Positions 22,501 through 29,103 of a stretch of DNA of 57,742 nucleotides are shown here, one piece after another. The position numbers and the translations under genes are program-made. Under the pieces are notes generated by a model that worked only from the letters and a program-made list of their open reading frames with translations, was not told the origin of the DNA and did no database searches. Each line of letters opens with the position of its first letter. Positions within the stretch are counted from its first letter, which is position 1. Source of the stretch: a virus (Duplodnaviria; Caudoviricetes); IMG/VR virus record IMGVR_UViG_3300032246_001167, positions 1 through 57,742 of that record; one strand, given 5' to 3'.

Positions 22501-22838
22501 GACCTGAAGTTGGCCGGGCTAACGAGGATCTGTTCTACGACCTCAAGCAGCGCGTCGACGAGAAGTATCAGACGTGGAAGACAATGACCGACCGTGGTGA
22601 TGACGATGCGGCCGATGCTTATGAAAACAAGCATGAGGGCTTGCTTGATATGTATCGCGAGGTCAACCAGATCAACGATGCGCTTGGTCAGATCAACGCA
22701 GAAATCCGCGAACTTGGCACAGCCAAGGGCCTAGACATGACTCCTGAGCAGCGTCGCAAGGAAATCACTGATCTCCAGCGCGAGAAGATGGAGCTGGTCG
22801 ACGACATCCGAGAGCTTAGGAAAGAGGCCGGACTTTAA
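13524..22838 (+). CDS. giant polyvalent internal virion protein (ParB-like, C5 DNA methyltransferase, TGT/DpdA-like, zincin, LPD38-like domains)
   Basis: 3104 aa; FDPDAYL N-terminal repeats; VISGRHRL (~15.4 kb); PCTDF and IENP (~17.2-17.3 kb); IDSGAF, PDVVGD, IHILG (~18.0-18.5 kb); HELGH (~19.36 kb); helical C-terminus; last gene of ejection module. Confidence 0.85.
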   Translation: MAFDPDAYLREKSKPEFDPDEYLSTTPSEPFDPDAYLASTKKAEPSFFDRAKTAVTDFFTPHPSKDAGPAMLTPEEEVMGAVAAAPPQAAPKVAPPPPAPMVYKNRREALDDAVNMLEEGFDQKKVIEAFQKLNVPWDEIVKYGKSRGSEYFAPGIPATAEQKRRAAAAPPAPVSELKPGPEPTYLEGAMNAFKRGKANMSDVATGMLFESRVLNPDEAGQILARNANQRAAAAPSYEVQKGMEAIGSAKTYGEAVDALWNNKSATLTMLVDSLFQTAPTLGATAVAAPLGALSRFVSTFGASGSMEYAGVINDVLNENGVDLRNPSAISKALSDPKVLEQMKDKGMKRGLVVGLFDGLTAGIASSFMRPAEEIIAANKLTGMQAKKVAAATWAKELSLQMAGGAGGEFAAQQITGENKPADVIMEALAEGLTAPAEVISAMQAGKAPPAPAAEVPPQAPPPEPPQTPPSRVEPFVGEEPPAPAPAPTEGIPGIVSAAETIPESTADLTEEEQNLVTGYLATGFSEEEAFDRIMKRRERKGGTRALPPVETPMPPVQAEPKLPELPSNETAAVGMPTVEVPLKDLTLSKDVPQFKMGANEKGVVEPLGGKFERTGVAPIQVWRRNDGSLEVISGRHRLDLARRSGETTIPAQIHDEAQGFTPQMAAVLDAELNIRDGQGKVKDYVNYFKASGITPQDAESRGLLARATGKRAFTVASQGSDELIAAVRNDQVPDEAAYFIALNAPNDSRLQGVGLQAVMDGKSANIAVNTMQAVKALGIENNTTTDMFGFDDSALKEAQAMAQVAARKQREIQTRLSAISGAAKNPAIAKAEGIDIRDPNAVNQRIQELRQMKAAWDNWSTNPDLIGEIRQARGVEAPSLTLRGETEEEIRAREEAAAAEERRRRAEEDAAKKAEQEAAERARAEQTVGLFELGQTADQQLSGMGDLFASQEPAVAKEKPAETKVEPTGAARLVMDRAQRLANAENNFRTSVMEQFGLTAEQADAALQKLIKEKLVTLNPDTGQADLKTGAAWDRDVMLRAAGAEEEPKEERKPGATDDEIKKVGEVFEGAQESQVEDDFEIHHLFDPPAKEDIVRLSEKEDFLTPEQAKAKIAEWRKNAEEQDKKGRAKGQMNPNSDKVVLSLFDLTGAWSEPWVEAGYQVYRFDIQDKWTMKDETTGEEVNLGDINQFSVKYFQDLFGDFEGNDVYAILAACPCTDFASSGARHFKAKDANGKTMDSINLVKKTLAVIDYWKPSIWAIENPVGRIEKLGGLPPWRMSFDPYMFGDPYTKKTLLWGRFNADLPTAPVEPTEGSKMHRQYGGKSLATKNARSVTPEGFAYAFFQANNAIDNPVLAIAGKYDRLDRDLIQQALDAGLTEYEIQQLVDDPYYFDGDDEAAENALRAAIAEKKSQKPAVAKEKPTEEKDLFGEPTEEALKAQARELMNTKVRIYASGMSAISDLSRAGRGAGGLDLKGVGVDVGELSANAINMLAHTIVNFNGAAFIDSGAFGAFRRGLKSGTITPINFDNVLKKYDAIIDAVGQTAEENGGDWSDVPNKPMLVMPDVVGDQTASLAELKKHLRWVKTELKLNHLQLIVPLQRGDLSLSDAYKAIVDMLGTDNFVVGIPSNAAAITPQELEAFLRESKPKAIHILGAGSEKNLLPRLISAINAGVADTTKITADASPIRSAVLAAVANGAKRGDAIEQFVFDERDPALLRDLERAKAEPAAPAAPVEAVAEEPVAPAEKPAKAPKVAKEKLPYTPEQRKEAEGHAEEIKGDLFWQKGDYALVRTYSLTGDTIYIPTMGSRRAMVVDVRSFTNKALPEDIKQEMLAAREQAEREAEIRHEFAPFIKFKDGIALSEDIPDNLAGVIRGWKDLLKLDAPIYVSTIEDARRNKNNFTGPHRRIGSGTINENDAGSMRRMNDGSYYILFTKSTSPTVMLEILGHELGHLHQALVFDRAPRETQQAIRDAHKNWLASQKGKTAKELVASMRGRATARRVRYASEDLKAEEASSYWHSFKEWYADQVSRWAVSAEAPTTIVEKFFKRLGNQLRQFYQQLKNKKYLPDETFAKYINEVTARAPELTPPKDISDLAEQSRKMVEPEQTNEDEDDKLLSKYNRPNTPMLDGKPLGTFLLGQWKNGKQLFKDFINDPVEAAKDAGDSAFDAVISARMQTVWFGAGLESRDFNRYGRQLRTSEGLAIASVALDNAIHSANIGIQVLFQGGLKYDSKFGRFVAVERKLGMRGVYEAEKRMKDRIGAQKATNLINGYLEAKRSISIMNELYDRQANYEDLKAHLEELVNQGAKEADIQDARDDLIDAQNDLKAIQKAASSVLMSEQEMRDFAALDKSHPELREIMKNFNAINQNLLRVWRDVGLLSEKRYNTLADIQDYVPWQRLMEDGEDPHTPLQSTNRNLTNIGREKLFKRGAPTDVLDFKAQVGQNTFELPASTVLKVTVDGKRVPADLLSVTEDGKLRIDQPIEEGALVVFKVTRPINNIIENMTQNVMRMSMNAIRHYAAARIVYEYGTRAPDGKLMTFPKVDKAKNRFNFIIDGQKVVVEISDPLVAGSIYGMENLDLEMWKPLAMVTNLVRRSITLSGAFQLEQVLKDAPTAAMVTGVKRPDLLIGGVLKGLITSLVQPAGKAAGVDIEPTVNILRAAGIGGFHSPSRTSEETVKRRIGVMNRNVYSASIQMLDHIGDSADMAQRVAVYKRVLAETGDEMQALHQAANVINFLHRGSAGYAQVLFKIVPFMSAYANATDVLANALIGGNLKGMSRAKAIRRLAIATAMLSSLTLMYCMLVGGDPDYEELDDQTKMRNIIVPGTKIKIPMNTSAAYIWKAVPEMLYNTVINEGTQNEVDRTRLKKALSQAAKDMLLGPPPIPAGVGKVAEVVLDHDFYTGRGVIPENLKHVEAFEQWDASTSELAKKLSAYTEVPGTDGKRVLSPIEADHLVRGLFGSVGFTAQWISNAIGERNGDRPELTGRETPVIGRFIRPEVGRANEDLFYDLKQRVDEKYQTWKTMTDRGDDDAADAYENKHEGLLDMYREVNQINDALGQINAEIRELGTAKGLDMTPEQRRKEITDLQREKMELVDDIRELRKEAGL

Positions 22839-22851
22839 CAATGTTAAAGTA
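22832..22851. promoter_or_regulatory. palindromic operator-like site ACTTTAACA-A-TGTTAAAGT
   Basis: Perfect inverted repeat between convergent gene ends; recurs at ~28200 and three times at 38394-38493. Confidence 0.6.
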
Positions 22852-22852
22852 C

Positions 22853-27863: not shown

Positions 27864-28149
27864 CAAGCTCACCCCTTCTGAGAGACGTCACCTGCAAAAG
27901 GTTAAGTCCTTGCCGTGTGGAGTCTGCGGAGCTGCTGGACCGAGCGATGCCCACCACATTGAGCAGCACAAGCAGTACCTGTGCATTCCTTTATGTCGGG
28001 ACTGTCACCAGGGATCTCATAACGGTATCCATGGCGAGAAGCGGATCTGGTCTGTCTACAAGAAGACCGAGCTGTCGGTTCTCAACGACACCATTAAGAC
28101 GTTGCTGGACAATCCACAACCGTGTCAGAATGCGCGGGCCTCCTCCTAG
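27856..28149 (+). CDS. HNH/Ref-like zinc-binding nuclease (DUF968-like)
   Basis: PCGVCG, DAHHI, IPLCRDCHQG..GIHG. Confidence 0.75.
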   Translation: MNNKLTPSERRHLQKVKSLPCGVCGAAGPSDAHHIEQHKQYLCIPLCRDCHQGSHNGIHGEKRIWSVYKKTELSVLNDTIKTLLDNPQPCQNARASS

Positions 28150-28168
28150 TGGCGATAAGTAAAGCTCA

Positions 28169-28195
28169 GCCCCCTCTTCGTGAGGGGGTCTTTTT
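28169..28195 (+). terminator. intrinsic terminator
   Basis: GCCCCCTC-TTCGT-GAGGGGGT stem-loop followed by CTTTTT at end of operon. Confidence 0.8.
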
Positions 28196-28197
28196 GA

Positions 28198-28220
28198 GTA
28201 CTTTAACAATGTTAAAGTAC
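28198..28220. promoter_or_regulatory. palindromic operator-like site GTACTTTAACA-A-TGTTAAAGTAC
   Basis: Perfect 11-bp inverted repeat with the same core as 22832; immediately precedes the hammerhead. Confidence 0.65.
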
Positions 28221-28225
28221 AGACA

Positions 28226-28271
28226 GTCCTTCTGATGAGCCGTGAGTCGGCGAAACCTACGGGTAAAGGAC
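28226..28271 (+). ncRNA. type I hammerhead ribozyme
   Basis: Stem I GTCCTT/AAGGAC; core CTGATGA; stem II GCCG-TGAGT-CGGC; GAAA; stem III CC-TACG-GG; GTA cleavage triplet (cut after 28265); intergenic. Confidence 0.9.
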
Positions 28272-28281
28272 AGCGTGACCT

Positions 28282-28374
28282 TCCGGTGTAGCGGGCTGCG
28301 TGGGGTTTTCCCGAGGACGAAAGGGTGAAGTAAGGGGTCGCGAACCCGAGCTGCAGCCTGATTAGTAAACCGGA
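28282..28374 (+). ncRNA. putative multi-stem structured RNA downstream of hammerhead
   Basis: Nested stems TCCGGT/ACCGGA and GGCTGC/GCAGCC enclosing hairpins GGG-GTTTT-CCC and GGGT-CGCGA-ACCC. Confidence 0.45.
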
Positions 28375-28377
28375 CTG

Positions 28378-28406
28378 TTGACAACGGATTTAGTTGGACA
28401 TACGAT
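28378..28406 (+). promoter_or_regulatory. sigma70 promoter
   Basis: TTGACA, 17-nt spacer, TACGAT. Confidence 0.75.
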
Positions 28407-28412
28407 GCACGT

Positions 28413-28554
28413 GTCTGGGGTGGCTCCCGGGCGACGATAGGAACCCCGATATTTTGGTAGGGGCTTTGTGTGACTCAAATCGCATCCTATCTGCGCCTAG
28501 AGTTGCCCAACGCCAAGGGCCTAAGCCTCTACCAAAGTGTCGGGGTTTTTCTTT
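28413..28554 (+). ncRNA. putative small RNA / attenuator leader
   Basis: Starts at the expected TSS; 5' hairpin GTCTGGG-GTGGCT-CCCGGGC; ~23-bp stem 28444-28466/28523-28545 with G-U pairs followed by TTTTTCTTT. Confidence 0.6.
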
Positions 28555-28866
28555 GGCCAGACCGCTCAGCTTGTGGGGTAACCGCAGGAGCTGGGGGATA
28601 AGCGAGACTGTGGGATAGTTCTGAGAACTCGCAAACGGCGGCGAAGAGAGCACCGTTGGAACGAAAAGGCTGTCGGGTGCTGTGGCTCCGTAGAGGGATA
28701 CAGTTGAAGGCGCACCTGGGATGGGCTAGGTGCGTCCACCATAGCGGGATGTTCGGGGTTAAGGTGTTGAAGTTAAGGTGTTAGGGGTAGACAGCGTTGG
28801 CCGGGTGGTAAAATGACCACACATGCAACAGATGAAACTGTTAGCATGCAACTGTTAGGAGGAGAT

Positions 28867-29103
28867 ATGGCATACCTTTGGTACACGATCAGGCAATCCA
28901 AGTACGGTCCTGGCTATGACGTTCACGGCTTCAAAGAGGCTGACAAGAACAGCGTTCTGGAGGGCCAAACGCTCAAGTGTTTTGTCGCTGTGTTTGACAC
29001 TTTGGAAGACGCTCAGAGTGCTTATCCGCAGGCCAAGATGGGTAGCGAATGGACCGATCCCCAGGTGTCTTTGAATCACCTGCCAGATGATGGTGGGTGG
29101 TGA
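28867..29103 (+). CDS. hypothetical protein
   Basis: AGGAGG RBS before ATG 28867; SVLEGQ.....V..FDTLEDA. Confidence 0.7.
   Translation: MAYLWYTIRQSKYGPGYDVHGFKEADKNSVLEGQTLKCFVAVFDTLEDAQSAYPQAKMGSEWTDPQVSLNHLPDDGGW

Follow-up and report, generated by a model that had tools for sequence, protein, structure and literature searches.

A hammerhead ribozyme that probably matures the 5' end of a conserved, knotted small RNA carried by many unrelated phages

The stretch of DNA analyzed here, hereafter the window, is the IMG/VR virus record IMGVR_UViG_3300032246_001167, 57,742 bases in length. Between its recombination and replication genes we identified a type I hammerhead ribozyme (28226..28271, + strand) and, starting with the first base after the predicted cut, a conserved knotted RNA (28266..28374, + strand). 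The region is intergenic: a DUF968-like open reading frame (ORF) stops at 28149 and the next plausible ORF begins at 28813. All flanking genes are on the + strand. Those upstream encode a PD-(D/E)XK nuclease, an ERF recombinase, and the DUF968-like protein, and those downstream a helicase and a Toprim protein. Based on sequence comparison, the hammerhead most likely trims the front of a small knotted RNA that is carried by many unrelated phages, often among their tRNA genes.

Direct inspection placed on the + strand every hammerhead element that an earlier sequence-only reading of this DNA had listed. Stem I is a plain 6-bp helix of GTCCTT (28226-31) with AAGGAC (28266-71). It is followed by the core CTGATGA (CUGAUGA in the RNA, 28232-38), stem II (GCCG/TGAGT/CGGC, 28239-51; strands 28239-42 and 28248-51, loop UGAGU), GAAA (28252-55), and stem III (A-CC/UACG/GG-U, 28255-64; strands 28255-57 and 28262-64, loop UACG), which includes the pair A28255-U28264. 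The cleavage base is A28265; the cut is predicted directly after it, leaving A28266 as the first base of the product. All positions of the conserved core (C3 U4 G5 A6 N7 G8 A9, G12 A13 A14, A15.1-U16.1, and an H17 other than G) agree with the consensus. Both RNA ends exit through stem I, whereas stems II and III are closed by loops, which makes this a type I hammerhead. The minimum free energy (MFE) fold of 28220-28277 is a three-helix hammerhead junction. The Rfam hammerhead model RF00163 aligns over its full length (model positions 1-45) with 20.1 bits and an E value of 0.0055, the latter applying only when 81 nt are searched. Our own descriptor (the core, with at least 4 pairs in stem I and at least 3 in each of stems II and III) has a single match in the window, at 28226-28271. 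Among 300 dinucleotide shuffles of the window, three contained any descriptor match and none contained an equally good one.

Relatives were collected by four routes. The upstream DUF968-like protein led to 80 loci, six of which have the hammerhead motif; a pattern of stem I plus core found 16 loci, and a pattern matching the RNA that follows the cut found 22, of which 13 were new. A pattern in which stem I was left free returned 68 loci, comprising 20 known family loci, two new members, and a remainder that was coreless or coding-like. Among the 48 new loci from this last route, 43 lacked CTGANGA within 60 nt and were set aside, as were three of the other five (L242, L270, and L275), which appeared coding-like by eye. 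Pooled, these searches yielded 27 distinct family hammerheads. Their core is CUGAUGA in 17, CUGACGA in nine, and CUGAAGA in one, and for H17, before the cut, 10 have A and 17 have C. Nine distinct versions of stem II, all complementary, are found across the 27 rows. Stem III is complementary in all 27, in 19 versions that have 3-13 pairs and whose loops or inserts reach 57 nt. Stem I, by comparison, is near-invariant: 24 of 27 carry GUCCUU/AAGGAC, one carries the compensated GUCCCU/AGGGAC, and two carry AUCCUU. The standard version also occurs in 21 of the 22 family loci recovered with stem I left free in the pattern.

We aligned 24 of the 27 hammerheads, omitting three that duplicate another row. 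Across this alignment 94.2% of the cells at paired positions can pair and 72 cells are changed on both sides. These double changes affect three of the four pairs of stem II and five of the seven pairs of stem III. The G10.1-C11.1 pair is found in 23 rows, and the remaining row is misaligned there. None of 500 shuffles matched the observed cell count, paired percentage, or covariation score, and two of 500 matched the number of pairs changed on both sides. Sliding the partners by 1-3 columns lowers pairing to 30-47%. The assignment to the type I hammerheads made in the sequence-only reading thus gains comparative support from a core that is kept and stems II and III that change in compensated fashion. 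As judged by this comparison, the motif is a genuine hammerhead with a fold under selection, a call that draws on its elements, the Rfam alignment, the fold, the covariation, and the shuffles. The minimal form, with no visible tertiary contact, an ordinary fold energy (z -0.48 for 28220-28277), and an Rfam score under the cut-off are what one would expect of a chance or decayed, inactive look-alike. Such an origin is very improbable given that no shuffle of the window was equally good and that core and covarying stems persist in aligned relatives from many contigs.

The same substitutions bear on a possible small protein encoded on the minus strand. An ORF with a TTG start (28166-28384, 72 aa) spans the region, and similar frames occur in three relatives (L010, L089, and L099). 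Yet the substitutions are paired across helices, the frames range from 72 to 175 aa, and another relative, L007, which is outside that ORF cluster, has a 46-nt insertion in stem III. We find the protein explanation hardly credible. Three further relatives, L106:2131-2245(-), L107:8531-8642(-), and L108:9439-9550(-), have GUAA and 49-57-nt inserts in stem III. ARAGORN detected no tRNA inside these inserts. The three hammerheads may be slow, regulated, or dead.

The most consistent feature of the family is what follows the cut. All 16 loci found with the hammerhead pattern carry the conserved RNA directly after it. Conversely, among the 13 new loci found with the RNA pattern, 11 have a complete hammerhead directly upstream, one lies at a contig end and shows only the 3' part of the hammerhead, and one is a chance match. 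In all members with visible upstream sequence, apart from one locus that has no hammerhead (L287), the first base of the conserved RNA is the predicted 5'-OH base. None of the 74 DUF968 loci that lack a hammerhead has the knotted RNA. The RNA is about 110-135 nt long across the family and about 110 nt in the window, where our model of it (R1) matches 28266-28377 with 71.2 bits. The sequence-only reading had proposed that the ribozyme matures the 5' end of the RNA that follows; this proposal is supported by the comparison, in which the ribozyme abuts a conserved, structured RNA at the predicted cut. The exceptional copy, L287:8239-8354(-), has neither hammerhead nor AAGG tail, begins 9 nt past a stop codon, and scores 46.9 bits with model R1.

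The conserved RNA opens with a 5' tail, AAGGACA (28266-72), and a hairpin, P1 (28274-76/28291-93), with a lower CAG/CUG part (28271-73/28296-98). P1 closes a loop, L1 (28277-90), which reads as the 13-nt ACCUNNNGGUGUA across the family and as ACCUUCCGGUGUA in the window. A second hairpin, P2 (about 28303-12), is followed by the conserved joining segment J2/3, AGG (28314-16). There is also a variable domain that includes the helix GGCUGC/GCAGCC (28294-99/28353-58), and then an A-rich linker leads to a pseudoknot strand at the end of the RNA. All of these elements are on the + strand. In the window the pseudoknot forms between UCCGGU within L1 (28282..28287) and ACCGGA (28369..28374), which is preceded by a conserved AA. 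In family terms, NNNGGU of L1 pairs over a long range with ACC and the three bases after it in 3' AACCNNN, and the variable positions covary (UCC/GGA, GCC/GGC, UAU/AUA, UGU/ACA, and UGU/GCG).

This pseudoknot was predicted unaided by RNAalifold from a MAFFT alignment for which 25 of the 28 RNAs, one identical and two near-identical copies being omitted, were the only input. In a second alignment of 27 distinct rows, which was guided by R1 and fitted to P1 and P2, so that these two hairpins are biased toward that model, 87.8% of the cells pair. The pseudoknot is not part of the model, and in this alignment it is 95.1% paired, with three of its six pairs covarying. One of its positions has CG in 12 rows, AU in five, GC in three, UA in two, and GU in one, and another has CG in 16, UA in nine, and UG in two. 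Within upper P1, four of five pairs are changed on both sides, and a subgroup of about nine rows that is out of register there lowers the P1 figure. Shuffles of the RNA structure reached the observed values in 0 of 500 cases on four of five measures and in 13 of 500 on the fifth, further pair types. About 17 conserved bases of the downstream RNA are unpaired or form the knot. No Rfam 15 family matches the knotted RNA of the window, L090, or L105 at E<=10, apart from a weak, partial match to the COG2908 motif. RNase P RNA was considered for what we took to be a resemblance (GAAAGGGUG..GUAAG and a P4-like pseudoknot) and was rejected: none of the same three sequences has an RNase P match at E<=10, and the GAAAGGGUG stretch sits in the variable domain and is missing from most subgroups. 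Together, the comparisons support a separate knotted RNA of about 110 nt after the cut that would be distinct from the mRNA of the replication operon.

The tail may have a second role. The sequence-only reading noted that AAGG (28266-69) could alternatively pair with CCTT (28279-82), with a possible function in product release or as a switch. Each of the 27 distinct rows could form the corresponding AAGG/CCUU pairing, and a 3-bp helix of the tail AGG with the CCU of L1 is among the RNAalifold predictions; both sides are invariant, so covariation does not back the pairing. As L287 has no AAGG tail, we regard the switch as no more than a possibility. CCU could pair just as well with the conserved AGG that follows P2. 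That stem I is near-invariant while the other stems drift does indicate a second constraint on the tail. We suggest that, after product release, the tail may re-pair with CCU(U) of L1, so that the cut could not be reversed and the 5' end would be buried. Another pairing involves the hammerhead's 5' flank. The stretch 28222-28229 (GACAGUCC), which consists of this flank and the first hammerhead bases, is complementary to 28371-28378 (GGACUGUU) at the 3' end of the RNA. The resulting ACAGUCC/GGACUGU pairing, found only in the subgroup of the window and showing no covariation, replaces stem I in the full-length MFE fold. Given that fold, cleavage would need to occur during transcription.

The surroundings of the hammerhead and its RNA differ greatly among loci. 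Three close relatives (L011-L013) keep the flanking gene and the RNA region downstream, but the roughly 260 nt that hold the unit are missing, and a promoter-like TTGACA...TATAAC directly follows their DUF968-like gene. Absence at the same site in close relatives marks the unit as an accessory cassette. Elsewhere it frequently accompanies tRNA genes, which occur at 10 of the 27 unit loci; the window itself has no tRNA. At seven loci (L088, L090, L098, L104, and L106-L108) the unit has a same-strand tRNA no more than about 110 nt away, which either ends 0-9 nt before the hammerhead or starts 4-10 nt past the end of the RNA. At four of the 10 tRNA loci, tRNA-Asn(GUU) is the first tRNA to follow the unit, being adjacent in two and about 400 nt away in two (L088:695-770, L104:2443-2518(-), L095:3857-3933, and L101:13289-13365). 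Promoter-like sites precede the hammerhead in L086 and L096, ending 9 and 19 nt from it, respectively, and none is present in L236. No neighboring protein family is common to the loci; the largest cluster is represented at seven of 28, in varying positions.

These settings bear on whether the unit instead serves the transcript that follows. The hammerhead might mainly process mRNA, severing read-through of the recombination operon from the replication operon, with the downstream fold merely stabilizing or insulating the message. Such a role has been proposed for prophage hammerheads located beside genes. Its place in the window, between two operons and just past a terminator, fits this view. 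So does the work of Perreault et al. 2011 (PMC3088659), where phage hammerheads are suggested to cut long transcripts into gene-length mRNAs and where the hammerhead of halovirus HF2 precedes a helicase gene, with a 5' end mapped within 3 nt of the cut. Nevertheless, the unit is also found within tRNA arrays, which offer no mRNA to be severed, and relatives manage without it at the same site. The downstream RNA has a covarying pseudoknot and some 17 conserved bases that are unpaired or take part in the knot, and a conserved promoter-like site intervenes between unit and operon. We consider an mRNA-processing role quite unlikely.

About as little probability attaches to the idea that hammerhead and knotted RNA form one cis-acting device for whatever lies downstream, for instance a 5' knot that protects against decay dependent on the 5' end, or an RNA that modifies the polymerase transcribing it. 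Transcripts would run on into the next promoter region, there being no terminator after the RNA, the 5' tail can tuck into the knot, and L287 lies between two genes on the same strand, all of which would suit such a device. In the arrays, however, the next element is a tRNA 4-10 nt away, which RNase P would cut off from the unit. Moreover, the downstream genes vary among loci and nothing indicates contact with the polymerase.

We also looked for the unit beyond these contigs. Searches with blastn of the window region, L090, and L105 against 50,697 phage records gave no match, nor did the window unit match E. coli genomes. Model R1 found nothing in 151 sampled Burkholderiales genomes, a set that included no positive control genome. 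A pattern scan of bacterial genomes listed at least 120 stretches, none with a hammerhead, and the pattern is too loose to bear on prophages; the one stretch that passed the screen and eight others that we read were coding-like. A pattern for a permuted form, with the 3' part of the RNA before the hammerhead, matched eight loci, all of them by chance, in a search that covered only the AGUAG subgroups.

In the window, the upstream recombination operon is closed by an intrinsic-terminator-like hairpin with a U-run (28169..28195, + strand; an 8-pair stem with 6 G-C pairs, then CTTTTT), which is kept in L005-L007. Between this hairpin and the hammerhead lies an operator-like palindrome of 21 nt, ACTTTAACAATGTTAAAGTAC (28198..28220, no strand assigned). 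A second copy (22832-22852) is found at the end of a + strand gene beside a likely immunity region. The palindrome of L099 is a variant with a symmetric double change, ACTCTAACAATGTTAGAGT, as would be expected of a dimer-binding operator or a hairpin. The TGTTAAAGT within the palindrome is a possible extended -10 element whose end is some 7 nt upstream of the hammerhead.

The downstream edge of the cassette is a promoter-like TTGACA-17-TACGAT (28378..28406, + strand; 10 of 12 matches) directly after the RNA. It is conserved and separates the knotted RNA from the replication operon. After it come a long hairpin (28446-28543, the site of a spurious MIR8622 match) and a U-run. The region 28378-28552, which is conserved in L011-L013, looks like a separate sRNA of about 140 nt. 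Positions 28563-28678, 190 nt downstream, match the Betaproteobacteria-1 RNA (RF02932) with 92.6 bits against a cut-off of 49.4, and this RNA suggests a betaproteobacterial host. Just after the match, 28670-28741 recurs in many contigs of three runs with unrelated flanks; the natural RNA may be longer than its Rfam model or may be followed by a second conserved element. DNA sequencing runs that contain at least half of the words of the stretch are labeled freshwater, lake-water, or plain 'metagenome', and one lake-water run covers 30 of 30 bins. Among the runs listed for 28100-28900 none was RNA. One metatranscriptome compared as contigs contributed nothing to the region, and two runs labeled RNA-Seq are probably DNA; these contig data show no transcript starts or ends and do not bear on expression.

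Considering this evidence together, we propose, with a probability of roughly three in four, that the 46-nt hammerhead, minimal but of a working type, is the front module of a portable two-part cassette and makes the 5' end of a small RNA. Transcription of the + strand would start at a promoter within or close to the palindrome or would read through the terminator. The hammerhead would fold first and cut itself after A28265, discarding itself and everything upstream, so that A28266 bears a 5'-OH. The RNA set free, about 110 nt long, would then fold as a compact double pseudoknot, in which P1 closes ACCUUCCGGUGUA, the 3' half of L1 pairs with ACCGGA about 80 nt downstream, and CCU of L1 has two alternative partners, the AGG of the freed tail and the conserved AGG that follows P2. 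The predicted product is a small and stable RNA, and its precisely set 5' end, free of a triphosphate, would be the same whatever the transcription start. Owing to this independence, the cassette could work after a promoter, downstream of an ORF, or within the precursor of a tRNA. RNase P is no help in making the 5' end of a non-tRNA within such a precursor. The RNA may act in trans on a host or phage macromolecule, and our guess is that this could be a conserved host component.

Several observations weigh against this proposal. In the window, the terminator lies 30 nt upstream of the ribozyme, the scan tool gives no promoter call ahead of it, and no terminator or processing signal marks the 3' end of the RNA. 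The RNA of L287, lacking a hammerhead, indicates that the ribozyme is dispensable for the RNA, and the tail-loop pairing is without covariation. GAAA is present in 24 of the 27 hammerheads; the GUAA of the other three, L106-L108, alters a position that is essential in minimal hammerheads. Natural fast hammerheads use a tertiary contact between stem I and loop II for quick cleavage at low Mg2+, but by eye we found no complementarity of loop II (UGAGU) to the flanks that could provide one. Stem III of the window has only three pairs, and together these two features leave activity at cellular Mg2+ unproven. Finally, the sequence-only reading had named the Rfam hammerhead models as a check, with a divided outcome: the full-length alignment was obtained, but 20.1 bits is below the RF00163 gathering cut-off of 34 bits, which is a curation threshold and not a biochemical feature. 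The relatives L090 and L105 reach 30.7 and 30.1 bits, also below it. At the gathering cut-off an Rfam scan of the whole window does not report the hammerhead, nor is it among the matches at E<=10 over 801 nt, and its score explains why a standard Rfam scan overlooks it.

A more speculative extension, which we hold to be unlikely, is that the knotted RNA represents a new class of functional phage RNA that needs its 5'-OH, either as a decoy or antitoxin mimic or as a new small ribozyme. As a decoy or antitoxin mimic, it would be directed at a host defense that cleaves RNA or targets tRNA. This would explain the place among phage tRNA genes and in an early accessory slot, the spread among unrelated phages, and the lack of a phage protein partner. 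The ribozyme option would bring the 5'-OH tail and the 3' strand side by side on L1. If the RNA class does depend on its 5'-OH, bacterial and phage hammerheads would have a defined biological task.

Bacteria and phages are known to carry hundreds of hammerheads. One paper still calls their biological role unclear (PMC3088659), and another calls the reason for their gene associations unknown (PMC10085705). The locus described here would give the ribozyme a readable task, namely to define precisely where one conserved, uncatalogued small RNA begins, and the open question of its role becomes testable via the cut site, the 5'-OH end, and the fate and partner of this RNA of about 110 nt. Standard annotation misses the unit, as its score falls under the Rfam cut-off. 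Our literature search found no description of a hammerhead fused to such an RNA, with the reservation that supplementary alignments (PMC3088659) and motif files (PMC5737381) could contain members. Relative to Rfam 15 and the searchable literature, what is new is the near-constant fusion, L287 excepted, of a hammerhead to one uncatalogued knotted RNA. In addition, phage tRNA arrays, whose cargo other than tRNAs is poorly understood, gain a structured RNA family.

Several known systems resemble parts of this unit. The hairpin loop ACCUUUcGGUGUAG of the COG2908 RNA motif (RF02939) has the same conserved bases as L1 (ACCUNNNGGUGUA) and is likewise flanked by a helix. That motif, however, is 45 nt long, has no hammerhead, and is classed by Rfam as cis-regulatory, and the matches here reach 10.8-14.4 bits against a cut-off of 58.7. 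The COG2908-like stretches are 28274-28293 in the window and L090:8694-8728(-). A search of 121 Burkholderiales genomes for a true COG2908 example gave none above the cut-off and four weak matches without the loop. The hairpin resemblance may reflect a shared module or coincidence.

Other likenesses come from phage tRNA clusters. Kienbeck et al. are said to have described in 2024 hepatitis delta virus (HDV)-like 'theta' ribozymes beside phage tRNA genes. Like the hammerhead here, these are reportedly small self-cleaving ribozymes in tRNA clusters that mature the end of a neighboring RNA; they are said to differ in belonging to another class, cutting at their own 5' edge, and serving tRNA 3' ends, whereas our hammerhead would cut at its 3' edge to serve a non-tRNA RNA. 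The tRNA cluster of phage T4 encodes the stable species 1 and 2 RNAs, of unknown function, which are also non-tRNA RNAs among phage tRNA genes. We know of no hammerhead in that cluster, and the likeness is one of description, not of sequence. The GOLLD and ROOL RNAs, according to Weinberg et al. 2017 (PMC5737381), are structured RNAs of unknown function that often lie beside tRNAs and in prophages and are possibly co-transcribed with the tRNAs; they are distinct in their length of 500-800 nt, their lack of a ribozyme module, and their sequence families, and the Rfam scan found neither of them here. An association of Drum RNA with hammerheads was considered and proved wrong, as Drum is linked in that paper to DUF3800-type proteins (PMC5737381).

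The closest comparison is with the type I hammerheads of RF00163 themselves. In Perreault et al. 2011 (PMC3088659), phage hammerheads are intergenic in PaP3 and Bcep176, and HHphage occurs in the haloviruses HF1 and HF2. The window motif shares with the RF00163 hammerheads an identical catalytic core, three helices, an open stem I, and an intergenic site in a phage. As with the HF2 hammerhead, which precedes an early replication gene, a helicase, and has a transcript 5' end at the cut (PMC3088659), the unit in the window is followed by replication genes. It stands apart from other RF00163 hammerheads in its near-invariant stem I, in scores below the Rfam cut-off, and in being always paired with one conserved structured RNA.
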